Shown in pieces: positions 8,670-58,230 of a stretch of DNA of 64,000 nucleotides. Each line of letters opens with the position of its first letter. Position 1 is the first letter of the stretch. The translations under genes and the position numbers were made by a program. Origin of the DNA: Octopus vulgaris (lineage: Eukaryota); contig OX597815.1 in NCBI GenBank assembly GCA_951406725.2, forward strand, positions 61,070,001 through 61,134,000, read 5' to 3'. The notes below the pieces were generated by a model. The model was not told the origin of the DNA. It worked only from the letters and a program-made list of their open reading frames with translations, and did not search any database.

Positions 8670-11600
8670 TTTTTTTTCTTCTTTCAAATTTTCTTCAATT
8701 TCTTGCCGAGTGTCTTCCCGACTCCTAGGGCAAAGAAACTCATAGTGTATATTGGTAGGCCATTAAACCAAACTCAGTAGTTCGTTCATCTTTTTTTTTT
8801 TTTTTAAAGTTAAATTAAAATACATGAGCAGCAACAGTTCTCACATCGACAATGCTCTTCTCAATACGTGTGATGTACCAGTTAAGACAATCTTTTGCAC
8901 TTCTTGCAGGGATGGTAAGCCAGGGATCATTCTCATATAATTTTCGGTTCCCTTCTTGATCATTCCTAGTGCTCCTACGATCACTGGTATTGTAACCGCC
9001 TTGAGATGCCACATTTTCTCAGTTTCAATGAGTAGGTCTTTATATTTTCTGAGCTTGTCAAACTCTTTCGCTGAGATATTATGATCACAGGGGATGCTCA
9101 TGTCGATCAATTAGCAAACTTTATTGTTTTCACAACAATATCTGGTTTATTGGCCTTGATGGTTCGGTCTGTATGTACTGGAAAGTCCCACAGAATGGTT
9201 ACATTTTCTCCTTCAGTTACAGCCTCAGGGTGGTGATTATACCACTTGTCGGCAGTTTTGATATTGTAATGCCGACTTATTAGCCAGTGGAGATATTGGC
9301 CAACTCTGTCATGTCTTAATTTATACTCCACTGGTGCTAAGACTTTACATCCAGAGATTAGGTGGTCCACTGTTTCAATCATGTCGTTGCAGAATCGGCA
9401 TTTTGGGTCTGCTCCATTTTTCATCACATTGGCCTGGTAGTTCCGGGTTAATAGGCTTTGGTCTTGAGCAGCCAGGATGAAACCTTCGCTCTCTGCTTTT
9501 AGCCCTGAGCTCCGCAGCCACTGATGGGTTTGCTTCTGGTCAACATCAGCTTGTTTGCTGCGGGTCACATATTTGCCGTGCAGAGGTTTCTCCTCCCACC
9601 TATCAGCCAATTGCTCGTGCGCTTTTTTCATTGCCATCATTTTCACCTTCTTTGCAACAATAGTTGCCGTACTTCCCTCGGGTTGTTCAGTTTGGGTATC
9701 CTGCACGAGATCAATAGCAAATTTTTTGCTTTCCTTGATGATAGAATGAAGCTTCTTTCGTCTCTCGTGATTTTCCACGAGCTTTAGCATCCAGTCATTC
9801 GATATTTCGAGATCTTTGGCCAGTCCAATTGTGGTTGTTTTGTAAGCTAGTTCAAATTGGATCAGGCCTCGACCTCCTTGGGCTCTGGGAAGGTAAAGGC
9901 GATCTACGTCTGCCTTTGGGTGGTGCATCCTATTACAACTCAGCAGCTTGCGTATTTTCCTATCTATATTCTTTACTTCACTCATATTCCAGTTCAACAC
10001 ATTGTAGCTATTAGTAACAACTGGAACTGCTAAGGAATTTATAGCTAACACCTTGTTACGTGCATTTAGTTCAGATTTCAGGACTGCACGAACTCTCCTA
10101 TAACATTCCTTCCTGATCTTCTCTTTCATGCTTGCATGCTGAATACCAGAGCCTTCATTTATCCCTAAATATTTGTATGTTTGTTCTTGCTCAAGCTCTC
10201 TTATGACTGTGTCAATATCTAACACGACTGAATTTGTGGTCTTCACTTTCCCTTTCTGGAAAGTGGCCTTGGCACACTTCTCAAGTCCAAACTCCATCCC
10301 GATGTCATCGCTGAATGCTTTCACGGTGCGCAATAGGCCTTCAAGTTCATTATTGTCTTTACCATAAAGTTTTAAGTCATCCATATAAAATAGATGGCTT
10401 ATTTTTTTATTGGCAATTTTATACCCATACCCTGTTCTGTTTAATTCACTTGTAAGGGGTATTAGGGCTATGCAGAATATTAAAGGTGAAAGTGAGTCAC
10501 CTTGAAAAATTCCACAGTTGATGTTTATATTTTCTGAGGCAAGTACTCCATTAGAGTGGTATAATTGGAGATTCGTATTCCACAACGACATATTGTGCTT
10601 CAGGAAGTTTGAAATCACAGGGGAAATTTTGAAGATGTCCAGCGATCTCAAGATCCATGGATGCGGTATACTGTCGAAGGCCTTTTTATAGTCAATCCAT
10701 GCGGTGCTGAGATTTCTGCGCTTGTTGTGACAGTTCTCAAGGATCATACGATTGATTAGCAGTTGATCTTTGCATCCGTAAGAGCCTCGGCGGCACCCTT
10801 TTTGTTCAATGGGGAAAATATCGTTCTTCTCCATGAATGCATATGTTTTCTCCGCCAGGATAGATGTTAGGATTTTATATGTGGTGGATAGACAGGTTAT
10901 AGGCCGATAGTTTTTTGGAAGGTTGGTTTCGTTATTCTTTGGGAGTAGGTAAGTAATGCCACTTGCTAACCATTCAGGTGTTTTCTTTGGGTCTCTCATA
11001 ATTCCATTGAGCAGCTGAACTAGCTTACCGTGTGCGCACGGAAGCGATGCGAGCCAGAAATTCGGCACCCTATCTTTACCGGGGGATTTCCAATTATGGG
11101 CCTTCGTGAGTGCCTTTCTTAGGTCTGCTATTGTGATGTCTTCCCATGCTTGTTGTAAATTTTGGTAGGATCCTTCAGTTTGTATAATCCAGTCTGCATT
11201 TATGTTGTACGTCTTCTTGTCACTCCAAATCCTTTTCCAAAAGTTTTGAACTTCTTCCATGGGAGGGGGTCTTTAACGGTTACTTTCTCCTTCCCTATTT
11301 CTCTGTAGAATTTTTTGGCATTGGATGTGAACAGCTTATTTTGCTTGTAAAACTTGTTTCTCTTCTCAAATCTTCGTATTCTTTGGGCTTTTGCTTGGAC
11401 TTTTTGTTTCAGCGTTTCTTTTATTGATATCAGTTCTTCTCTTGGTGAGGATCCAAATTTTCTCTTCATCTTTCTTCCTGTTCTGGATCTTACATCATTT
11501 CCACATATTAGTTCATTTAATATTGATATTTCCCCTCTCATAAATTCAATCTCTTTTTCAATTTTACTTCTCCAGGTTTGATTTCTTCCCAGGTTTTGTT

Positions 11601-12930
11601 TTCTTTGTTTTTTCGGGGGCATACAGCTGGTTTCAATTGCCCTAGCAGAAGCGTAAATAATTTCATTTAACTCAGTAAAATCAGGTTTTAATTCTCGTAT
11701 TATTTCATTTGTTACATAGTTGCCAATTTGGATTTGTTTTTTATTTTGGTTTGTATTTGAGAGTTTATGAAGCGGTTCTCTATCATTCATACTTGTATGT
11801 CTTACAACTTCAAGCGTATTCAGGATTTTCTGCCTCATTTCTGCCATAGACTCTCTGTGTTCTTCAGCAAATGCGAGATCTTCAGTTACTGTTGTTTTTT
11901 CGTTTTCCTGGCTATCTTTAACAGGTACAATAGAATTTCTTGTATCTTCAGGCCTTTGCGTACTTTGGTCAGATGGCAGTCTTTCAATTAAGCCTCGTGG
12001 CGGGCTATACTGTTCATCTGATTCTTCATTTCCTTTGTGTCTTATATTTATGTCATTTTCCGTTGCGTGCTTGATCGCGCTTATTTCACTGTCTGTGAGT
12101 CTGTTATTTCTAAAGATATCCCTCCTCACATTTGCTAATTTGTTCTCGTCCAAATAGGGCCTACTGTCTTGATTCCGTGTTCTCCATATACTGTAAGAGT
12201 TTGCGGTGTGTCTCTCTTGAGATGGCCTACCTAATGCATAGTAATAAGCGTACATTACTTCTTTATACTCTTCTCGGGTCCATTTGTTCCGCTTACATTT
12301 TTCTTTCTGTGGTGGTTGTGGTGGTGAACTTGGAGGGCTCGAGTTGCGGGATTTCCCGTTCAAGTGACCATCCATGTCCGTATTCGGAGAAGAGTTTGTG
12401 CCAGTTGATGACTTTTCGATCCCAGGCTGGCTCTTCCCTGGGGGACGCGCTTCCAGATTAACCATAGGACAAGCGATTTGGTATACTGATTTAGTTTTCC
12501 TTTTAGTTTCCAAAAACATTTTGGTGCTACGATAATGTTATCATTTTTTAGCTTTGATTGGCTCGTGGGGAGACGGCCATCATTGCCGTTACAATTATAA
12601 TCGTACCATTATAGCAGCCGTAGTCGGCTTATTATTGTTATTATCATCACCATTACCATCACTATCATCATTATCACCACCATTACCATCATCATTATCA
12701 TCATCACCATCACCATCACCACCATCATCATCGATGATATTGTTTTATGTGTAGTCACAGCAGTATCTTATTGTTATTTTTGTTATTTTATCATTATCAC
12801 CATCACAGTAGTGTCTGTCTGTCTCGTTGGCTGGCTTGGTGGTTGGCTGGCTGACTGTCTTTTTTTTTTTTTTTTTCTTTAGGTGCGGTCCTATTATTTA
12901 GGTGCGGTCCTATTCTTTAGGTGCGGTCCT
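8669..12930 (-). mobile_element. R4/Dong-clade non-LTR retrotransposon (RT + CCHC + restriction-like endonuclease), near full length
   Basis: Domain order RT-CCHC-RLE and both ends in (TAA)n, the known target of Dong elements. Confidence 0.9.
8841..12519 (-). pseudogene. Dong polyprotein split by two frameshifts (~11260, ~9115)
   Basis: KSPGKD, YRPITCL, DYKKAFDS, GIFQGDSLSP, HLFYMDDLKL; CRFC-x8-H-x4-C; RHD; KPDIVV...IDMSIP...KLRKY. Confidence 0.9.
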
Positions 12931-13297
<367 letters not shown>

Positions 13298-13512
13298 TCC
13301 GACACGACGGACGTACGTGAATCAGCTCTATGAGTTTTGTGCCAATTTTATTGGAAATTTGTTAATAAGTTTTAATATTTTTGAATATTTTTGTAGCCAA
13401 ACCGACCAGCCTCTTGCGGAGCTCGTCGGTTAGGCGAAATTTTGCCCCTTCGGGGTGAAATTGCTGTTTATTACATTGAAATTGACATTTTTTGCACAAA
13501 CACATTTACAAA

Positions 13513-15345
13513 ATGGCTTTAAAACGAGCTGCTGGCTCTTCCCTCCTTGCAACAACACCCCCTCCACAAGAAGAAAAAATTGCGTCACAGGTTACGAACA
13601 ACCCATTTCAAGCCGTAAAAGGCAACAGAGCTCCTCCTTCAGAAACGGAAAGCACGCGCGCCGTTCGAAAGGAGAATGCTAGCCAGGACGTCGCGTTCGA
13701 CGTCACTCCTGATTTCCCCCCTCTGCCTTCAACTAATGTTATAGTACCGAAGGGTGAGGAAGGGAATAATATGAATAAAAGTCATATAAACAAAGAATCA
13801 AAAATTGAAGAAAATTCAAAAGGCTTTGCTTCAGCTGCGAAGCAAATTTCGGAGGAAGTAGAAATTACGATGGAGGATCTAAAAATGGCAAAAGATTTGT
13901 TGAGAAAGGAGGGAAACAGTGTTTTCCTCAACACACCTCAACAACTCATACAAGAGACCAATAAAAGAACAATTTTTTATAAAGTTTTCGAAAAGAAAAC
14001 AAAAAGATTGTTTAACGCCACACCCCAACAGTTAGAAATAGCTCTGAAGCCCATTTGGGGCCAAAAGAGCTATGTGACAAGAGGGAAGCGATTTGGAACC
14101 GTGGAGGTTCGCTTCCCAACCGAGGAGCAAGCAAGGGCGCATGCCATTTCGCCCTTGCAAAATGAACATTTGTTCCTCGTTCCCATGTACCTCGGGCGTA
14201 AGGTACAAAAAATAACAATCAACACAATACCCCCCGAACAGAAAATCTCATGGCTAGTGGCGGCTATCCTCTATGGCATAGAGGACACTGCCACTATTCT
14301 AAATGTTCAGAGGGTACGAGAAAAGAACTGGTCAGGTATGGGTATTGAACTGCTGGTACAGATCCAGCAGGAAAACATCAATGCCATACCTGACTTTGTC
14401 ATCTTATTAGATGGGACCAGGCTAAATGTTACTGTAGAGGGGCGAAAGCCAAAATGTTTCCTCTGCATTAGCGAAAGCCACCTGAAAAGGGACTGCCCCA
14501 TTCAAAAAAAGAGAATGGAGGAGTACAGCAAGAGGCAGCAACAACAACAACAACAACAACAACAGAAACAACAACAACAGAAACAACAGAAACAGCACGA
14601 AGCACCAAAGGCCGCCACACCACCAACAGCATCACCAGCACCAAGACGAACAATACCACCTCCAACAACAACAACCACCACCAAACCAACACCGACACCA
14701 GTACCTCGAAGGTCGACAGCAGCAACATCAACAGCAACAGGAGCCGCGGCACCACCGATACCGGCGGAACCAAGAACCTTTCGTCCTGGTACTGAAGCAG
14801 ACCCATCAACCATTCCTTTGCTGGATGAAGAGTCGGATTGTGCGAGCTCTGATTCCAACAAAGGAGAATGGAGCACAGTGCCTCCAAAAAAGAAAAGGAG
14901 GAAAAAACAAAAAGATATACAGGGGAAGCACGAACAAATAGTGCTTCCAAACATCAACAACAACATCAACGACAACACACATTCACAACAACAAACAACA
15001 ACAACACTTTCGACACCACTACTGCCACTGCCACTGCCACAGACACAAACAAACACAGACGCACTTACAGCAATAAATACAAAAAACCAAGAACTGGTTG
15101 AGTATTTGAAAAACTCAACCAGTACAAGTATAACAGATTTTGTTATACCAACAAAAAACACACCACCAGCACACATTCTGACAATAAAAATAAACAAAAC
15201 AATATACAACGAAATTAAACAAATATTCCCTAACGATGTGGGATTGTTAGGGAAAAGTTTCTCTCAGAAACTGTACAAAAATATCGTGGAAGAACCCGTG
15301 CAAAAGCACAAGGGAGCCACCCCCACCACCAACAACAGTAAGTAG
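13513..15345 (+). CDS. ORF1 gag-like nucleic-acid-binding protein with CCHC zinc knuckle and Q/T/P-rich tail
   Basis: Open ~610 aa from ATG 13513; CFLCISESHLKRDC; position upstream of an APE-RT ORF. Confidence 0.8.
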   Translation: MALKRAAGSSLLATTPPPQEEKIASQVTNNPFQAVKGNRAPPSETESTRAVRKENASQDVAFDVTPDFPPLPSTNVIVPKGEEGNNMNKSHINKESKIEENSKGFASAAKQISEEVEITMEDLKMAKDLLRKEGNSVFLNTPQQLIQETNKRTIFYKVFEKKTKRLFNATPQQLEIALKPIWGQKSYVTRGKRFGTVEVRFPTEEQARAHAISPLQNEHLFLVPMYLGRKVQKITINTIPPEQKISWLVAAILYGIEDTATILNVQRVREKNWSGMGIELLVQIQQENINAIPDFVILLDGTRLNVTVEGRKPKCFLCISESHLKRDCPIQKKRMEEYSKRQQQQQQQQQQKQQQQKQQKQHEAPKAATPPTASPAPRRTIPPPTTTTTTKPTPTPVPRRSTAATSTATGAAAPPIPAEPRTFRPGTEADPSTIPLLDEESDCASSDSNKGEWSTVPPKKKRRKKQKDIQGKHEQIVLPNINNNINDNTHSQQQTTTTLSTPLLPLPLPQTQTNTDALTAINTKNQELVEYLKNSTSTSITDFVIPTKNTPPAHILTIKINKTIYNEIKQIFPNDVGLLGKSFSQKLYKNIVEEPVQKHKGATPTTNNSK

Positions 15346-15383
15346 AGCCTTTTTTCTCCTTTTTTTTCCCCTACTTTTGAAAC

Positions 15384-18300
15384 ATGGCAAATCTTAGAAT
15401 CGGTTGCTTGAATGTGAGAGGCCTCGGGTCACCTTGGAAACAGGGTCACCTGTTAAACGACCTGAGGTTTCATGATGTGGATGTAGCAGCCATCAGTGAA
15501 ACCAGGCTCTCCGACCCGCAGGAACTCGCAGCCCTTTTCGGCGGATACGAGATATTTCTATCTCCGTGTCGGCCGGGAGCGGGCAGTGGTGGTACTGCGG
15601 TGTTGTTTCGGAAGGGCCTGGACCTGAAAATAAGGACAGTCTTCTTGGATCCGGAAGGTAAGTTGGTGGTCCTCGACGTGGACGGTAGTGACGGCGGTGG
15701 TGCTTTCAGACTGCTGGCTGCCTACGCTCCGACAGGAGCAGGGCAGTCGGATTATTTCAAACGTCTGGAAGTTTTCCTGGGAACGTCACGCACTCTAGTG
15801 CTAGTTGGGGATTGGAACGCTGTCTTAGACGAACGTTTCGATCGGGTGGGCAGGGGAGCGTCTGATAGGAGAGGGGGAGGGTGCAAGAGCCTCGCCAACC
15901 TACTCGGCCGCTTTCAGCTGTCCGACAGGTTTCGACTAGACAACCCGAATGTGCCAATGTGGACTTGGACAAACCGCATCGGGTCGTCTAGATCGTACTT
16001 AGATAGAGTGTTTTGTAGGCCAGCGGATAAGGACAGCGTAGGGTGTCCACAATTCCACCTAGTCGAATATACAGACCACAAATTAGTGATCTGTACGGTC
16101 GACTTAGATAGGCTACATAGACAGGGACCCGGCTACTGGAAGCTGAACGCGTCGTTAACGGCGTGCAAAGCTTACAGAGACCGGATTAGTTTACTAGTTA
16201 AGCGGGCGCTCACGGGGGCAATCATCAACAACAACTGGTGGTTTGCCCTCAAGAGAGCAATTAGAGTAGAGTCGATTAGGTATAGTAAGACTCTAGCTAT
16301 TGAACGTAGGAAGAGAGAGCGGGATTTAGTTAAGAAACTAGACGAGGCTCTTGACACTGGCATCGCGACCGACGTGTTGGCGGCAAGGTTGGCCCTCGAC
16401 CAACACTTCGACGCCAAACACGAAGGTTGCGTTGTCAGAGCTAAGGCACGTTCGCTAAGCGGGGAGGGGACTAGAGCCGCTCGATGGGCCCGCATGGCGG
16501 AGGCGAAGCGAGGCAACAGAGCAACCATTCGGTCTTTGGTGGACCAGAACGGGCGCGAGGTTACCGAACCGAAGCAGATGTGTACGGTGCTTCAGCGGCA
16601 CTTTGCTCAACTGTTTGGGACGAGCGGTGGAACGGACAACGGTGCAGACTTCGGTGTGTACCTGGACGGCCTACCGCAACTCTCGGACAGCGAGGCAGAG
16701 TGCTGCGAAGGTCCGATATCTGCCTGGGAAGTACAGGAAGCGATGAAGAGTTGCACGAGAGGTAGATCGCCGGGTTTGGATGGTCTGCCCTACGAGCTTT
16801 ACTTTCAATGCCAGACTTGTTTGCGGACCTGTTGGCAAACGTCTACTGCAACTGGCAGCAAAACGGGAGAATTCCTGCTTTTGTCTGTCGAGGGGTGGTG
16901 GCTTTGCTAAAGAAGGACCCAAACAAGGGGGACGTTATAGGGAATTTCCGGCCCATCACTCTGCTCAATGCAGAGTTGAAGATTTTGGCCAAGGTGCTAG
17001 CCAAGAGATTGGCGCTTGTCGTGGACAAGCTGGTCGGCAAGACGCAGACATGCGCCGTGCCGACCAGGTCAATACACGACAACCTCCATCTCATGCGCTA
17101 CATCATAGAGAGGGTGGGTAACGACGCTGGCGCGGGTGGGGCTTTGATCAACTTGGATCAGAGTAAAGCCTTCGATAGGGTCGACCATCGGTACCTGGCA
17201 GCTGTCCTCAAGGCAGCCGGCTTCGGTCCAGTCTTCCTGCGGGTGGATAGCTGCTTTATACAGCAACATCTGCTCGGTGATACGGGTGAACGGTCACCTT
17301 TCGGAACCGTTCGACATCTCGCGTTCGGTCCGCCAAGGATGCCCTCTCTCCTCCCTCTTGTACATTTTGACTCTCGAGCCATTACTGCGCAAGTTGGAGG
17401 CTTTGAGGGGTATCCCGCGCGATCTAGGAGGCGGAAACAGCGTGTCTGCTTATGCCGACGACGTCACCGTGGTGGTGTCGAGCCACAGGCACATTGGCCT
17501 GATTGGCGAGACGCTAAACCAGTACGAAGCGGTGACAGGGGCAAAGATTAACGCGGAAAAGTCTGTGGGCTTGCAACTGGGCACCTGGAGAGGCAAGCCC
17601 ATGCCGTCCAACAGCGTCGTAGGGCGCTGGACAGACGGACCCGTTAAACTGCTCGGGGTCTGGTTCGGTCCGGACCTCCAGGTGGATAAGAACTGGGAAG
17701 AGGTGACGAGCAGGGTGGCACGTCTCACCCAGAAATGGGCCGAGAGGAAGCTGTCCCTGAAAGGTCGAGCGGAGGTGGCGAATGCGTACATCGCATCCGT
17801 CATCTATTACCGCTTGACCGTCGTCCCTTGTCCCGACCGCTGGTTGGCCAAGCTGGTACGCCTGCTCTTCGACTTTTTGTGGAAGGGTCAGGTGCCACTG
17901 GTCAGGCGATCCATCTGCTGTCAACGACCGCTGAACGGAGGCCTTGGAATGCCGTGGTTGCTGTTGCGCAGACATGCGCTCAGGCTGCGGCATCTCAAGC
18001 GCTTCCTAGACGGTGAACAGGTGTGGTCGTCTTTTGTCAGACGCGATTTTCCGCAGCTCGTCTCTTTGACGGAGCTGCAGACCTGGATCAAACGTAGACC
18101 GAGAAAGGGCGCTTGGCACCTCGAGTGCCGTCAAGCCCTCTCCGCCCTCCGCCAGGCGGGCAATGCGATCGGTTACAGCTCCACTCTAGCGTTCTATAGA
18201 GGGTTAGTGGAGGAAAAATGCGACGACGTTCTCGGGGAAACTCTAGGCGTTGAAGATGACGAACTGAGCAGTCTGTTCGGGAGGACTTTCGGGCCGGGGC

Positions 18301-18818
18301 CGATGGATAATTTCCAGAGGTCTCTCGCCTGGCAGTGCTACCGAGGGGCTCTGCCTGTTCGAGATAAACTCTACCGGCACGGAAGTGCCGTCAGCCGGGC
18401 CTGCCCGAGGTGTTGCCAGGACGACGAAACCGTTCTGCACGCACTCGTCCAGTGCCCGAGTATTGCTGAAATATGGGTTTATGTCGAACAGCTACTGTCA
18501 CGTGTAGGACGGATCCGACTATCGGCCGAATCCATAGTGAAGATTGCCCCGCCGACCTCCTTTAACAAGGAGGGCGAGGCCGTTTTCTTGTGCCTAGTGG
18601 CTGTGGCGAAAGAGGTCGTGTGGTGGACTCGTTTGAAAGGGCTAAAGACAGACACTTTCCTCTTTGGTCAAGGCCTCATCAACTTTTTCAAGTTTCACTT
18701 GAAAAGGAAGATGAGGTTAGAGAGGAAAGTGCTGTCCGATAGCAAGTTTTATGAAAGGTGGGTGAATTGTGCGAGACTGGCCTGTATAAATGGACCAGTT
18801 CTCAGGTTTCGCCTGTGA
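15384..18818 (+). pseudogene. ORF2 APE endonuclease + reverse transcriptase + zinc knuckle; two frameshifts (~16805, ~17240)
   Basis: LNVRGL, SET, GDWN, YLDR, TDH, YWKLN (APE); SPGLDG, FRPITLLN, DQSKAFDRV, RQGCPLS, AYADD (RT); CPRC-x8-H-x4-C. Confidence 0.9.
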
Positions 18819-22483: not shown

Positions 22484-23715
22484 CGAGGGACGTTCAATAA
22501 GTAATGCCTCTGACCTACTTGCAATTGTTTGATCTAGCTGAAATTTTGCATGTGCAATTGCTTATATGTCTATAGATTACGGGGAACTAATTACAGCTCT
22601 GAACTAATTGTGGTTTCGGATTTACAGGTGTTTGAACTGAGTCAAGTGTGAAATGGAGCCTGTTGAGTGTCGAGCAGTGATACGGTTTTTATATTTGAAA
22701 GGACGCACACCACGGGAGACTTTTGATGAAATGAAAGTAACTTATGGTGATGATGCCCCATCATATGACCTTGTAAAACGCTGGCGTCGCGAATTCAAAC
22801 ATGGTCGGAACTCTGTGGAAACAGCTCCCAGATCTGTTCGCCCCCTTCTTCCATTGATGAGGCATCTGTCCGTCAAGTTGAGGCTGCCATTTTGGAAGAT
22901 CGACGCATAACTATTCGCCAAATAGCCCATGAGGTCAAGATTAGTACCGGGTCTGTGGAAACTATCATTCATGACAATTTGCATATGCAAAAGGTGTCTG
23001 CCAGATGGATTCCCAGGCTGCTCAAATCTTTCCAGAAGCAAGAATGCGTCGAGCGCTCGAGGATGAATTTGGAGATATGCCAAGAAGATGAGTCAAATTT
23101 TTTCAAAAGACTGATTACACAGGATGAAACCTGGGTCCATCACTATGATCCAGAGACCAAAGCCCAGTCAATGCAGTGGAAGCACCGTGACTCACCTCCT
23201 CCAAAGAAGGCAAGGGTGCAGCGCTCCGCTGGCAAGGCCACGCTCACAGTCTTCTGGGACCAGGACGGAGTAGTGATGACAGATTTCCTGGCAAAGGGCA
23301 CCACAATTATAGGAGCCTATTATGCTTCACTTTTGAGGAAATTAAGAGAAGCTATCAAAATCAACTCGCTGTCGCCAGATCAGAAGCATAGGCGTGCGGC
23401 TATGAACTCCTCCCCCATCTCCCTATTCTCCTGACCTTGCACCCTCAGATTTTCACCTCTTCCAAGCCATGAAGTTGTTTTTGAAAGGAAAGTGTTTTCC
23501 AAATGATGCAGCCTTGATTTCTGAAGTCACGTCGTGGTTGGAGGACCAAGCTGGGGTCTTCTACAAAAATGGTCTCCAGAGCTGCATCACACGATGAGAG
23601 AAATGCGTTACTCTGGGTGGTTCCTAGGTAGAAAAAGACTAATAACTGTGCCAAGTTTTGTTGCTCTACTGCTATGGGAAGTGGGTCAGGGGCATTACTT
23701 ATTGAACGCCCCTCG
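22484..23715 (+). mobile_element. mariner transposon, defective
   Basis: TIRs CGAGGG(A/G)CGTTCAATAAGTAATGCC with TA duplication; transposase from 22653 with WIPRLL, ITQDETW and YSPDLAPSD-like motifs; frameshift, deletion and stops. Confidence 0.92.
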
Positions 23716-33162: not shown

Positions 33163-33860
33163 CTAGCAGTATCGCCCAGCGTTGCTCGGGTTTGTAAGGG
33201 AAATAACTATATAAGCATTTTTAGAGAGTTATAGCCAAAAAATAGCAAAAAAATGTATTAAAAATGGAAAAAAAATGATGGTAATTTTTTTTTAATCGTT
33301 GACTCATCGTAGACATTTTTAGAGAGTTACTTCCCTTATATAATAGCGAAAAGATGCATTAAAATGGAAAAAAATTATGGTAAATTTTTTCTTTATCGTA
33401 GACTCATCGTAGACGCGCGCTAATACCCAGAATGGCTCGATATGAATCACGACTATAAGATACCCGGTTTTGGTTAAACTGCACCGCAAAATGTGGGAGT
33501 AGTTAGGAATCTAAATCGTAGGAGACAGACACACAACTTCACTTTTATATATAAAGACTAGCAGTATCGCCCGGCGTTGCTCGGGTTTGTAAGGGAAATA
33601 ACTATATAAGCATTTTTAGAGAGTTACTTCCATTATATAATAACAAAAAAATGCATTAAAAATGGGGAAAAATGATGGTAAACTCTTTTTAAAATTGTAG
33701 ACTCCTTATAGACACGCGCTAATACCCAGAAGGGCTCGATGTGAATCACGACTATAAGATACCCGCTTTTGGTTAAACTGCACCGCAAAATGTGGGAGTA
33801 GTTAGGAATCTAAATCGTAGGAGACAGACACTCACACAACTTCACTTTTATATATAAAGA
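33163..33860 (-). mobile_element. Head-to-tail dimer of non-autonomous Helitrons (33558-33860 and 33163-33557)
   Basis: Each unit starts 5'-TCTTTATATATAAAAG and ends CCCGAGCAACGC(C/T)GGGCGATACTGCTAG; junction CTAG|TC; inserted at A|T with no duplication. Confidence 0.85.
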
Positions 33861-34440: not shown

Positions 34441-34759
34441 TGGCTGTTGACACACACATACATGTATTCCTAGCATACATACATACGTACATAAATACAT
34501 GCATGCCTACATGTACACATACATATGCATGCATGCATGCATACATACATACATACATACATACATGTGGGGGGTGTATGTGCATATATATATATATATT
34601 GAGGGCATTACAAAATAAATATAAGAGAGTGGTCACTATATTGATCACTCTAGCACCAGTTAATCCAAAAGGTTTCAACCACGAAAATACATGTTTCCCA
34701 TGAAAGCCAGTACGACTGTTAGCTCACACGGACAGGGCAAATAAAAAATAACAAAAATA

Positions 34760-34853
34760 CAGATTATTTTGGGACAATTGTTTCGCTATTAATGAATTAA
34801 ATGTAATATTACTTACAATAATCCATTTGTAGCTCGTCAGCCAAGACTATCTG
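34760..34853 (-). ncRNA. Type I hammerhead ribozyme, array copy 1
   Basis: Reverse complement of 36801-36894. Confidence 0.85.
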
Positions 34854-35292
34854 GATGAAATCCACTCAATCACACGCCAGATTTTACCATAACGATAAAT
34901 ACGCGTGTGGTTCAATTGATTACATCCGACGTTATAATTCAAATGCCCCAACCAACAGCGCGCCAAACTCTCACGGAAAACAAATACAGCAATTAGAAAT
35001 AAATGCAGCATAATTATAATTAATTAATAAGGGTGAGAGAATTAGATACTAATTTAATAGTATATTTATTCCACACCAAGTGGCCTAGTGCTACGAGAAA
35101 CCTGGATTATTATAATATTTTATAACATATTATAATATTTTCACAAAATAAATATAAGAGAGTGGTCACTATATTGATCACTCTAGCACCAGTTAATCCA
35201 AAAGGTTTCAACCACGAAAATACATGTTTCCCATGAAAGCCAGTACGACTGTTAGCTCACACGGACAGGGCAAATAAAAAATAACAAAAATA

Positions 35293-35386
35293 CAGATTAT
35301 TTTGGGACAATTGTTTCGCTATTAATGAATTAAATGTAATATTACTTACAATAATCCATTTGTAGCTCGTCAGCCAAGACTATCTG
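35293..35386 (-). ncRNA. Type I hammerhead ribozyme, array copy 2
   Basis: Same sequence 533 bp downstream of copy 1. Confidence 0.85.
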
Positions 35387-35825
35387 GATGAAATCCACTC
35401 AATCACACGCCAGATTTTACCATAACGATAAATACGCGTGTGGTTCAATTGATTACATCCGACGTTATAATTCAAATGCCCCAACCAACAGCGCGCCAAA
35501 CTCTCACGGAAAACAAATACAGCAATTAGAAATAAATGCAGCATAATTATAATTAATTAATAAGGGTGAGAGAATTAGATACTAATTTAATAGTATATTT
35601 ATTCCACACCAAGTGGCCTAGTGCTACGAGAAACCTGGATTATTATAATATTTTATAACATATTATAATATTTTCACAAAATAAATATAAGAGAGTGGTC
35701 ACTATATTGATCACTCTAGCACCAGTTAATCCAAAAGGTTTCAACCACGAAAATACATGTTTCTCATGAAAGCCAGTACGACTGTTAGCTCACACGGACA
35801 GGGCAAATAAAAAATAACAAAAATA

Positions 35826-35919
35826 CAGATTATTTTGGGACAATTGTTTCGCTATTAATGAATTAAATGTAATATTACTTACAATAATCCATTTGTAGCT
35901 CGTCAGCCAAGACTATCTG
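35826..35919 (-). ncRNA. Type I hammerhead ribozyme, array copy 3
   Basis: Same sequence 533 bp downstream of copy 2. Confidence 0.85.
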
Positions 35920-36800
35920 GATGAAATCCACTCAATCACACGCCAGATTTTACCATAACGATAAATACGCGTGTGGTTCAATTGATTACATCCGACGTTA
36001 TAATTCAAATGCCCCAACCAACAGCGCGCCAAACTCTCACGGAAAACAAATACAGCAATTAGAAATAAATGCAGCATAATTATAATTAATTAATAAGGGT
36101 GAGAGAATTAGATACTAATTTAATAGTATATTTATTCCACACCAAGTGGCCTAGTGCTACGAGAAACCTGGATTATTATAATATTTTATAACATATTATA
36201 ATATTTTCACAAAATAAATATAAGAGAGTGGTCACTATATTGATCACTCTAGCACCAGTTAATCCAAAAGGTTTCAACCACGAAAATACATGTTTCCCAT
36301 GAAAGCCAGTACGACTGTTAGCTCACACGGACAGGGCAAATAAAAATAACAAAAATACAGATTATTTTGGGACAATTGTTTCGCTATTAATGAATTAAAT
36401 GTAAGTCGTACTGGCTTTCATGGGAAACATGTATTTTCGTGGTTGAAACCTTTTGGATTAACTGGTGCTAGAGTGATCAATATAGTGACCACTCTCTTAT
36501 ATTTATTTTGTGAAAATATTATAATATGTTATAAAATATTATAATAATCCAGGTTTCTCGTAGCACTAGGCCACTTGGTGTGGAATAAATATACTATTAA
36601 ATTAGTATCTAATTCTCTCACCCTTATTAATTAATTATAATTATGCTGCATTTATTTCTAATTGCTGTATTTGTTTTCCGTGAGAGTTTGGCGCGCTGTT
36701 GGTTGGGGCATTTGAATTATAACGTCGGATGTAATCAATTGAACCACACGCGTATTTATCGTTATGGTAAAATCTGGCGTGTGATTGAGTGGATTTCATC

Positions 36801-36894
36801 CAGATAGTCTTGGCTGACGAGCTACAAATGGATTATTGTAAGTAATATTACATTTAATTCATTAATAGCGAAACAATTGTCCCAAAATAATCTG
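36801..36894 (+). ncRNA. Type I hammerhead ribozyme, inverted array copy
   Basis: CAGATagtcTTGG-CTGACGA(36814-20)-GCTA...TAGC-GAAA(36870-73)-CAATTG-TC^(36881)-CCAAaataATCTG. Confidence 0.88.
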
Positions 36895-37974
36895 TATTTT
36901 TGTTATTTTTTATTTGCCCTGTCCGTGTGAGCTAACAGTCGTACTGGCTTTCATGGGAAACATGTATTTTCGTGGTTGAAACCTTTGGATTAACTGGTGC
37001 TAGAGTGATCAATATAGTGACCACTCTCTTATATTTATTTTGTGAAAATATTATAATATGTTATAAAATGTTATAATAATCCAGGTTTCTCGTAGCACTA
37101 GGCCACTTGGTGTGGAATAAATATACTATTAAATTAGTATCTAATTCTCTCACCCTTATTAATTAATTATTGAGGGCATTACTATACATAAATGTCACAC
37201 GCTAGGAGGGACTCTTAAAGTCAAAACTACCAAAATAATTAAACACATTGTACAGAATACGAGGGAATGCAACTCTCGAAGCGAGCATTTTAAAAACACA
37301 ATTCAGCTGCATATCATGAGTTGCATTTGCAATGAATATTTCCCAGTATTTAACAGCATTCCCCAATATGTTCAACTCCCATATAACATATCTACAAACA
37401 TACTTTGGAGTACTAGAATATAAAGATGTACTTCATGAGGACACAGCTTGGCTTATAACCCTATCTACATACTATGTCTGTGTGATTGTGTATGTGTGTG
37501 TTTGTGTGTGTATATGTGTGTGTGTGTGTGCATGTGTGTGTGTGTGTGTGTGTGTGCGTCCAAATCTTACGGAGGCCTCGAAAGGTATTTTAAGATCCAC
37601 AAAGATCAGGATAGTGCTGCTCATGGTGGTCTAAAGCAGATGTTATTTATGTTGGTGTCTTTTCAATACATTGTCTGGTTCAAAAAGCCACATCAGACGC
37701 CATGATATGTATGTATGAATAATGCAATGGGAATCAAACAGAAATTGGAAAATTTACTTTTGAAGCGTCTAACAGTTTACACAGAAACAATATGCAAATA
37801 TTCCAGATCAATGTGCAAGATGCAAAATATTAAACTGGTCAGTTTTGGCGGTCCATATAAAGACGAACAGACGTATAATGATCTTAGGCATCTTGTAAAT
37901 CCATTGAAGTATCAATGGTACTGCCATAGTAACAAATCTAAAGCACACACAGTGAAACCGCTTGGTACAGATTG

Positions 37975-42372: not shown

Positions 42373-44396
<2,024 letters not shown>

Positions 44397-45466: not shown

Positions 45467-46729
45467 GAGGGGCGTCCAATCAGTAATGCCCCTGACCCAC
45501 TTCCCATAGCAGTAGAGCAACAGTTATTAGTCTTTTTGTACATAGGAACCACCCAGAGTTACACATTTCTGCCATCGTTTGATGCAACGCTGGAGACCGT
45601 TTTTGTAGAAGACCCCAGCTTGGTCCTCTAACCACGACGTGACTTTAGAAATCAAGGCTGCATCATCTGTGAAATGCTTTCCTTTCAAAAAAAAACTTCA
45701 TGGCTGGGAAGAGGTGAAAATCAGAGGGTGCAAGGTCAGGAGCGTAGGGGGGATGGGGGAGGAGTTCATAGCAGCACGCCTGTGCTTCTGATCTGGCGAC
45801 ACGCGAGTTGTGAACCGGAGCGTTGTCCTGCAGGAGGAGGATGCCTTTGCTGATCTTGCCCCACCTCTTGATTTTGATAGCTTCTCATAATTTCATCAAA
45901 AGTGAAGCATAATAGGCTCCTGTAATTGTGGTACCCTTTGCCAAGAAATCTGTCATCACTACTCCGTCCTGGTCCCAGAAGACTGTGAGCATGACCTTGC
46001 CAACGGAGGGCTGCACCCTTGCCTTCTTTGGAGGAGGTGAGTCACGGTGCTTCCACTGCATTGACTGGGCTTTGGTCTCTGAATCATAGTGATGGACCCA
46101 GGTTTCATCCTGTGTAATCAGTCTTTTGAAAAATTTTGACTCATCTTCTTGGCACATCTCCAAATTCATCCGCGAGCACTCGACGCGTTCTTGCTTCTGG
46201 AAGGGTGTGAGCAACCTGGGAATCCATCTGGCAGACACCTTTTGCATATGCAAATGGTCATGAATGATAGTTTCCACAGACCCGGTACTAATCTTGACCT
46301 CATGGGCTATTTGGCGAATAGTTATGCATCGATCTTCCAAAATGGCAGCCTCAACCTGACGGACATATGCCTCATCAATGGCAGAAATGAGTGATCAGAT
46401 CTGGGAGCTGTTTCCACAGAGTTCCGACCATGTTTGAATTCACGATGCCAGCGTTTTACAAGGTCATATGATGGGGCATCATCACCATAAGTTACTTTCA
46501 TTTCATCAAAAGTCTCCTGAGGTGTGCGTCCTTTCAAATACAAAAACCGGATCACTGCTCGACACTCAACAGGCTCCATTTCACACTTGACTCAGTTCAA
46601 ACACCTGTAAATCAGAAACCATAATTAGCTTATTAATCTATAGAGATATAAATAATTGCACATGCAAAATTTCAGCTAGATCAAACAACTGCAAGTGGGT
46701 CAGAGGCATTACTTATTGAACGTCCCTCG
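45466..46729 (-). mobile_element. mariner transposon, defective; same family as 22484-23715
   Basis: Same TIRs and TA flanks; ITQDETW, LLQDNAPVH, YAPDLAPSD; frameshift and stop. Confidence 0.92.
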
Positions 46730-57409: not shown

Positions 57410-58230
57410 CTAGCCGAATGACCTGGCGTTGCCCGGGTTACTGCTGTTTATTCACATTAGTAATAAATATAGATATATTTTTCATAGTTATTTCAAAATA
57501 ATATTTTATTTTAAAATATCCAAATTGTAATGATAATAGAATTTCGAACTGAAAATCTGTCAATGTTGAAACACCCTAGGGTAAACAATATTCATAGTAT
57601 AATATTTTGCCGGTGTCGAAATGAATAAATTGTTGCTGTTTCTAGCTCGCGAGCAAGCAACATAGAGTTGGTCGTGGGAGAAGCATGTAGTAGAGAGATC
57701 AAGTCCAACTACCTTGAGGAATTGACCCTGAGATTTGTTAATTGAAATACCATAACGAAGCATCTTAAATTTAAATGGAACAACTGTAGGTATGAGAGGA
57801 ATTTTTGAAATAAAGACATTTTCTTCTTTGTGGCAACCTGTTATGATTGTTGCCCACTGGACATGGAGAGCATTTTGGAGATGAACATAATTTTTAGCCA
57901 TTATCATTTTTTTATTGTTACGAATGTAGAGGAGACGCTCACTCTCAACTTTAGCATGCACATAAACCAGGTATTGCTGAAATAGATTACGACGCATGTG
58001 TAATTGTTTTGATTGTTCTGGTCTTAACATCAGTTGGTAAGAATAGAAGTCATTTGACGGCACCTTTTCGTTTGTAATTAGTTTTCTTGTTGCAGGTTCA
58101 ATCTGTGGAATATTGAAATGGTGCCCATCTTGTCCATTCCACAAAAGAAGCGGTTACAGGAGAGCATCATAAGAGGGATGGCTACATCATGTGATGTGGG
58201 CTCATTAAAACGGCGTAAAATGTTCTTTAC
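57410..58230 (-). mobile_element. Helitron 3' end with internally deleted RepHel remnant (ORF 57560-58144)
   Basis: LFQQYLVYVHAKVESERLLYIR (Rep N region) joined to SINKSQGQ...FSHDQLYVACSR...NIVY (Pif1-like helicase end); terminal CCCGGGCAACGCCAGG...GCTAG|T. Confidence 0.85.

Follow-up and report, generated by a model that had tools for sequence, protein, structure and literature searches.

Divergent arms with two fixed outer ends are the usual footprint of a 533-nt hammerhead repeat in Octopus vulgaris and suggest Penelope-type priming of both target strands

An array of 533-nt repeats changes orientation at position 36404 of the window, by which we mean the whole 64,000-nt stretch of Octopus vulgaris DNA that was analysed. 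The switch marks the place where the two arms of a single young insertion of a non-coding hammerhead repeat meet, and such inversion is the normal footprint of the 533-nt family. At 55 of 55 loci with two arms, the arms start from two fixed points in the unit, one from each. This pattern suggests that one RNA was likely copied, from both cut DNA strands, by an enzyme of the Penelope type. Our preferred reading, which we consider probable, is that the hammerhead repeat, a retrozyme, is inserted by Penelope-type priming of both target strands on one template, followed by end-joining. Genome-wide searches and counts refer to one 2.8-Gb genome assembly. Positions in the 533-nt unit (u) are numbered on the ribozyme strand from the predicted cleavage site, and the features of the locus (34597-37182) are given in Table 1.

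Table 1. Features of the insertion and its hammerhead motifs, in window coordinates
Feature	Position	Strand	Remarks
Target-site duplication (TSD), left copy	34597..34611	+	15 nt; last 2 nt also fit the B end of the element; directly after a (TA)n tract
Left arm	34610..36404	-	3.37 units; ribozyme sense on - strand; outer end at fixed site B (u162), inner end at u499
Orientation switch	36404..36405	.	Inner seam, u499 joined to u55; 1 nt common
Right (inverted) arm	36405..37170	+	1.44 units; + strand carries the ribozyme sense; ends outward at fixed site A (u289)
B-to-A interval	37042..37170	+	130 nt; counterpart of the Penelope 'tail', at one insertion end only
TSD, right copy	37168..37182	+	Terminal part of a neighbouring high-copy repeat
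Insertion-specific allele u313	36662; also 34992, 35525, 36058	+ at 36662	Four genome matches, all here, in both arms
Type I hammerhead, copy 1	34760..34853	-	Predicted cut between 34773 and 34772
Type I hammerhead, copy 2	35293..35386	-	Called from motif and fold
Type I hammerhead, copy 3	35826..35919	-	Pairs with the inverted arm in the predicted read-through fold
Truncated hammerhead	36358..36404	-	Restricted to the 3' half, with part of helix II, GAAAC, helix III and the cut site; predicted inactive because it lacks the CUGANGA core
Complete hammerhead, the sole one on the + strand	36801..36894	+	Predicted cut between 36881 and 36882

The forward array has a period of 533 from 34610 and ends at ...TAAATGTAA at 36404. 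As an earlier note on this DNA had claimed, the array stops there in mid-ribozyme, because u499 lies in the terminal loop of helix II, and continues inverted for 766 nt (767 counting the common A). The inverted arm matches 35783-35016 at 99.6% identity, and the unit copies of the array show four differences among them. The long, offset inverted repeat described in the same note is also borne out; it is offset because the arms in nearest register are 87 nt apart. The reported microhomology of about 1 nt at the seam was found to be 1 nt, which by itself is no more than chance would give, since 1 nt or more is present at 47% of random junctions. Beyond the note, we identified a 15-nt TSD, and found that both outer ends lie at unit positions that are fixed across the family. 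The TSD has a core of 10 nt, with a further 2-3 nt that are compatible with the ends of the element too; it encloses the whole block, which is therefore one insertion. The locus is an ordinary family member, and is useful because its TSD and a private allele can be read. The exact 36404/36405 junction has a single occurrence in the genome. We rejected the idea that this junction recurs, the single similar string, at L039, being an error-rich seam in another register. That seam (L039:5987-6030) comprises about 40 nt of error-rich, partly templated sequence that resembles the 36404 junction by chance.

The core, helices I-III and GUC site of a type I hammerhead ribozyme motif are present in each complete unit, and self-cleavage is predicted. 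Helix I of the motif is extended, helix II is long, and helix III consists of 2 bp closed by an AAUU loop; cleavage of invertebrate motifs whose helix III is this short is efficient, according to PMC7229834. The fold z-score is -4.0 for the hammerhead motif and -6.0 for the whole unit. An Rfam search returned no hammerhead at gathering or E-value thresholds, so the hammerhead call rests on motif and fold. Alignment-based genotypes indicate that the core is nearly invariant across loci except at N7. Two kinds of change close a C-A mismatch in helix I, giving U-A at 19 of 75 loci and C-G at four of 75, and at the latter four the next helix I pair turns to C-A. A ribozyme-dimer requirement was considered, because helix III is palindromic, and is not claimed. 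The GC content of the unit is 33%. No ORF of at least 110 aa lies inside the insertion, and the element is non-autonomous. Since the ribozyme is on the - strand to the left of the switch and on the + strand to the right, the arms diverge, with the RNA 3' ends outward.

We found 584 exact matches to the core in the genome, and units of 531-538 nt in other copies. Motifs for the two ends joined to (TA)4 gave 545 and 439 matches on the forward strand alone, the reverse-strand counts being inflated by a variable gap. We analysed 100 loci: the 40 best-scoring matches to the full unit that were examined (of 817 candidates) and 60 loci on one contig (C1) that were chosen by one end motif. The partner end was free to vary in both sets. 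The earlier note had proposed that inverted and direct arrays be counted genome-wide; 55 of these 100 loci are two-armed (26 of 40 best matches and 29 of 60 on C1), so that inversion is a trait of the family, and the arms diverge in all 55. The outer ends of every two-arm locus are one A and one B, sites 130 nt apart, with no instance of A+A or B+B (p about 6e-17 at even odds). The A end is at u290 in 42 of 55 loci (range 277-290), and the B end is at u157-162 in 52 of 55. Each of the 45 loci with a single arm has its outer end at A (27) or B (18), and seven of them have a stretch of 7-12 nt that fits a remnant of the partner arm, some of these perhaps being chance AT matches. One two-armed locus, L063, has an additional short piece alongside.

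(TA)n is present on both flanks at 53 of the 55 two-arm loci; the C1 loci were chosen by an end beside (TA)n, but the 40 best matches were not, and gave the same result. TSD candidates with an internal C or G were found at 11 loci, six of them 14-16 nt long including overlap. Arms are up to 6.8 kb long, both exceed one unit at 21 of 55 loci, and the shorter is at least 300 nt at 29 of 55. The lengths of the two arms are correlated with rho 0.59 in the C1 set and 0.11 in the long set. Short stutters precede the B start at 25 of 55 loci and the A start at seven of 55 (p = 0.0003), which suggests that the A and B primings are not equivalent. The stuttered additions at B ends resemble repeated abortive priming. 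At L040:5656-7167 the A arm is in several pieces, with small deletions and a jump, and the B arm is clean.

The same A+B design at 55 loci, on many contigs, also bears on whether the switch at 36404 could be an assembly or read artefact (a fold-back chimera), a later inversion or a second insertion into the array. The evidence is one assembly, and no independent read across the junction was seen: when 36320-36840 was compared with contigs from four runs, none of the 32 pieces listed, of about 5,100, bridged 36404. Joints to the 'opposite strand' in this comparison are the ordinary continuation of the 533-nt unit. At the right end, where the flank also belongs to a high-copy repeat, the comparison was swamped by copies of that repeat and no allele with an empty site was readable. 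However, a fold-back read mirrors its own flank, whereas the right arm here ends in a different flank with a 15-nt TSD, and the arms differ at four private positions. A second insertion should differ in haplotype and have a TSD to itself, and both fixed ends would not face outward after a later inversion. We conclude that an artefactual origin of the junction is unlikely, and we give this whole group of explanations almost no weight. The insertion landed at the end of a different repeat of very high copy number (37168-37320), which also adjoins (TA)n.

Alleles indicate that the two arms of an insertion had a common origin. At 50 of the 55 two-arm loci (five with rearranged arms were dropped), 174 substitutions are fixed in both arms and six are fixed in just one of them. 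Arms match within a locus in 21 of 32 cases, as against 9% between loci, in a comparison that retains L038 (17 inter-arm differences) and L111 (six). An allele unique to the locus is present on both arms at six loci, the genotyping having left out the five rearranged two-arm loci, L038 and L063. At the locus described here, the u313 allele is in all four copies of the insertion that cover it, in both arms. It has no source copy in the assembly, the other haplotype or an ancestor being possible sources. The A arm crosses the predicted ribozyme cut at 39 of 55 loci and the B arm also at 39 of 55. Arms that cross the cleavage site and reach 6.8 kb imply that the template was a circle or a multimer that had not been cleaved.

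A monomeric circle, towards which we lean slightly, is favoured by the uniformity of units that carry unique alleles; a linear or circular multimer is a serious possibility, to which we give a little under half of our confidence. At L098 (C1:40929400-40939300), one substitution is found in four of 13 copies, with no clean period, and is absent from the other genotyped loci. This scattered substitution favours the monomeric circle, and resembles repeated misreading of one base. Conversely, a heterogeneous multimer accounts better than a monomeric circle for the block variants that are confined to some of the copies at L045, L049 and L071. Substitutions that recur in some copies of an array and are rare or absent elsewhere were seen at L058, L071, L045, L049, L035 and L025; possible causes are a misread modified base, a multimeric template and gene conversion.

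The inner ends are scattered over the unit. There is no enrichment at the ribozyme cut (six of 155 inner ends, with 3.8 expected), and a stop hotspot at this position was rejected. Fixed outer and variable inner ends point to the ribozyme-sense strand as the template. Microhomology of at least 1 nt is present at 35 of 43 simple junctions, with a mean of 1.7 nt as against 0.76 by chance; the other 12 of the 55 junctions, with insertions or long overlaps, were left out. At 16 of 55 loci the two inner ends are no more than 30 nt apart, which is more than expected by chance (p = 0.0008); these comprise 13 of 29 loci in the C1 set and three of 26 in the long set. This coincidence fits either fold-back in a subset of insertions or two reverse transcriptases (RTs) stopping together. 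Several seams are palindromic (L063, L090 and L119), and some of those with coincident inner ends are perfect palindromes, which fold-back would produce as well.

Fold-back, or self-priming, would have only one strand primed, after which the nucleic acid folds back and copies itself into the inverted arm; the accessible text of PMC3846280 proposes it for Penelope inverted junctions, on an antisense template. The coincident inner ends, the palindromic seams and the alleles common to both arms are all in its favour, and it is geometrically possible at 41 of the 54 loci tested (L063 was left out), the 36404 locus included. However, fold-back is geometrically impossible from either arm at 13 of the 54, and seams are offset by more than 30 nt at 39 of 55 loci. 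It also leaves unexplained why the second arm has its constant end at the partner site, and fixed outer ends with variable inner ends point to a ribozyme-sense template. At the 36404 locus, neither of the feasible registers gives the right arm a counterpart of the private change at 35764, although this change could post-date the insertion. We therefore regard fold-back as improbable, and the pattern argues against antisense self-priming as a general route.

In twin priming of the L1 type, the second strand anneals by chance microhomology just upstream of the first cDNA stop. The first cDNA ends beside the second priming site, which varies between insertions, and the hallmarks of the process are divergent polarity, a TSD and junction microhomology. 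Ostertag and Kazazian reportedly described it for L1 in 2001, with both target strands priming cDNA to give divergent arms, seam microhomology and a TSD. Our insertions are alike in all these respects, as would be expected if they arose in this way. Unlike L1 insertions, however, they have two fixed rather than opportunistic starts and lack a poly(A) tail, the seam lies away from the second start, and the arms overlap as a true long inverted repeat. On this definition of twin priming, inner ends should adjoin the other start, but they lie within 15 nt of it at seven of 55 loci (6.2 expected) and within 30 nt at eight (11.9 expected). Modulo 533, the distance at the 36404 locus can be read as a gap of some 210 nt or as an overlap of some 106 nt. 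L1-type twin priming is largely refuted by these adjacency counts, and we think it very improbable. The earlier note had proposed, with twin priming in mind, that a single template, multimeric or circular, was primed by both strands of the target. Priming of both strands on such a template agrees with the TSD, the divergence at 55 of 55 loci, the unique allele on both arms and the passage of both kinds of arm beyond the cut; the L1-style part of the proposal does not stand, given the fixed starts and the adjacency expected by chance.

Priming of both target strands by a Penelope-type enzyme would proceed as follows. A protein with RT and GIY-YIG domains, presumably acting as a dimer, would nick both strands at or beside (TA)n, 10-15 nt apart, in keeping with the TSDs. 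One 3' end would start at A (u290) and the other at B (u160) on ribozyme-sense RNA; neither site is used twice in any insertion, an observed pattern for which this chemistry is putative. Both copies would then pass the cut site for up to several units with the same alleles, as is seen in the arms, and from this read-through and allele sharing the template would be one uncleaved multimer or circle, or RNAs of one source. The cDNAs would stop or be trimmed variably, their 3' ends would be joined via 0-6 nt of microhomology, and repair would fill in. The expected outcome is the divergent arms, 130-nt tail at one end, offset seam and TSD that we observe.

Similar footprints have been described for Penelope-like elements (PLEs). 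The accessible parts of PMC8557442 and PMC3846280 report an inverted 5'-truncated copy, a one-sided tail of 30-40 bp and a preference for (TA)n. As in PLEs that bear an endonuclease, the octopus repeat has a divergent inverted arm with 3' ends outward (55 of 55 two-arm loci), a tail at one end (55 of 55), AT-rich or (TA)n targets (53 of 55) and a TSD of about 10-15 nt. Unlike such PLEs, as far as these papers describe them, it has no ORF, and thus no RT with GIY-YIG as in an autonomous PLE; its tail is 130 nt; and both arms exceed one unit at 21 of 55 loci. The length of the tail, far beyond both 30-40 nt (PMC8557442, in its accessible text) and the 35 nt of a PLE family in this genome, speaks against our preferred reading. 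The PLE tail appears in print, in the parts accessible, as optional and ascribed to endonuclease resolution or self-priming, whereas the pairing here is strictly one A with one B. The same portion of PMC8557442 describes the origin of inverted arms and one-sided tails in PLEs as undefined.

Biochemical data are available for a Penelope-like protein, PAc (Poseidon of Anolis), which cut and extended both strands in vitro and was predicted to form a dimer (Frangieh et al. 2024, PMC11167929, accessible text). The octopus insertions share with PAc the use of AT-rich DNA, two internal RT start sites that bound a tail, and an uncleaved RNA substrate. In contrast, the accessible text of PMC11167929 contains no one-of-each pairing, inverted product, or multimeric or circular non-coding template. 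PAc, as described there, starts without target homology, whereas the A start here has 2-4 nt in common with (TA)n. The start site in vitro was the same for both strands (PMC11167929, same text), which is compatible with random assignment of strands and is not proof of one-of-each use.

We also examined PLEs in the octopus assembly, taking 40 loci from 148 listed GIY-YIG matches (150 scored of 6136 candidates), a sample that covers few PLE families. Intact 781-aa ORFs with an RT and, at the C terminus, a GIY-YIG domain are present in many near-identical copies. This family inserts in (TA)n and has two fixed 3' ends 35 nt apart. Among its anchored copies, direct ends have the tail in three cases and lack it in 14, and the inverted copies with both ends visible pair an end with the tail and an end without it (two of two, L146 and L148). 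The family (L141, at C16:20832800-20842300, and L142-L160) is young and about 98% identical, with a second upstream frame and partial tandems, and its 35-nt tail includes a short palindrome. A pattern search found no hammerhead motif in the repeat of this family. A blastn comparison of the 533-nt unit with the 40 PLE loci gave a single 20-nt match (E = 0.47), and no mobilising partner was found among them, a point against our preferred reading. With no detectable sequence common to the unit and these PLEs, the comparison supports a common mechanism and does not identify a partner element.

Metazoan non-LTR retrozymes have been published and linked to PLEs (Cervera and de la Pena 2020, PMC7229834, accessible text), as have animal retrozymes in the accessible part of a preprint by Li, Clavereau and Pollet (bioRxiv 10.64898/2026.07.22.740005). 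As these texts describe them, such retrozymes resemble the octopus repeat: the tandem unit is non-coding and rich in AT, each unit carries a single type I hammerhead whose 2-bp helix III bears a tetraloop, the multimers are dispersed, the TSD exceeds 4 bp, and a dependence on PLEs is proposed. The octopus family is a tandem non-coding unit with a hammerhead motif, is dispersed in many copies (584 core matches), is low in GC (33%) and has TSDs of 10-15 nt. As to LTRs, PBS (the primer-binding site) and PPT (the polypurine tract), its ends are the A and B sites joined to target. It differs in its long helix II and in its 533-nt unit, which falls outside the published monomer range of 150-450 bp, a range that is descriptive rather than mechanistic. 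Self-cleavage and expression as linear and circular RNA are further traits of such retrozymes, and none of the listed sequencing runs that contain the octopus repeat is on record as RNA. Inverted arms, fixed starts and a tail are not described in the accessible text of PMC7229834 or bioRxiv 10.64898/2026.07.22.740005, supplements aside. More widely, the literature, supplements and most subscription papers aside, yielded no strict one-of-each pairing, 130-nt tail or inverted retrozyme arrays. The accessible retrozyme literature (PMC7229834, bioRxiv 10.64898/2026.07.22.740005) puts forward the copying of retrozyme RNA by a rolling circle as a proposal and does not demonstrate it.

A more specific form of both-strand priming is conceivable, which we put forward tentatively, with slightly less than even confidence. 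An asymmetric pair of Penelope RTs would sit at A and B on one 533-nt circle made by the ribozyme, each primed by one strand of the staggered cut, and would copy for up to 13 turns, so that each insertion records one RNA molecule. If so, the tail and the inverted arm would be two results of one obligatory two-site, two-strand priming, RNA structure would set the length of the tail, and arrays would be born whole by rolling-circle reverse transcription. The family supplies hundreds of young natural products for which predictions are exact: each strand should have a single start, at u160 or u290, the stagger should be 10-15 nt, and each insertion should carry one haplotype. Because the template is short and non-coding, testing it directly in vitro with a Penelope-like protein is practical. 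Both the mechanism of Penelope insertion and rolling-circle copying thereby become testable.

The inverted repeat might instead matter as RNA, with read-through hairpins of more than 700 bp feeding Dicer or ADAR and perhaps silencing the family, a role that is compatible with the insertion mechanism and that we consider unlikely. The earlier note had stated that either strand of a read-through transcript would carry a ribozyme and fold into more than 700 bp of dsRNA. Ribozyme sequence is indeed on both strands, and both give a long hairpin in silico, of about 767 bp. But the sole ribozyme on the + strand is predicted to be wholly paired with the left arm, inside the hairpin, whereas two of three on the - strand stay free, so the strands are not equivalent. 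Two further points support a role as RNA: the shorter arm is at least 300 nt at 29 of 55 two-arm loci, and small-RNA silencing of Penelope families is reported in rotifer (PMC3846280, accessible text). Against it, private changes in the genomic copies (G>A 19, T>C 8, C>T 7, A>G 3) have no excess of A>G and hence no editing signature (A>G 3 vs T>C 8, p = 0.38), so hyper-edited hairpins were apparently not templates; the G>A excess is not significant (p = 0.11). The inversion is moreover explicable without selection, and it is found in over half of the examined loci, as expected of an insertion by-product. A regulatory dsRNA role is not supported so far, and the long inverted repeat probably arose as an accompaniment of insertion rather than as a selected RNA device.

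The remainder of the window contains other mobile sequences. Two copies of a mariner-type Transposase_1 gene (22604-23649 and 45520-46628) flank the array about 22 kb apart, in opposite orientation and 90-95% alike. Retrotransposon reading frames with RVT_1 lie at 9107-12537 (- strand), and split retrotransposon frames with an AP-type endonuclease, RVT_1 and zf-RVT lie at 13486-18818 (+ strand). An open frame of 496 codons at 42373-43863 (- strand) has no Pfam match at E 0.05, and a Helitron_like_N fragment is present at 57560-58153 (- strand). Just to the left of the array, 33216-33860 is an older, diverged tandem duplication with a 100-nt period at 33216-33414, and within it a stretch is repeated about 300 nt apart, at 33500 and 33800.
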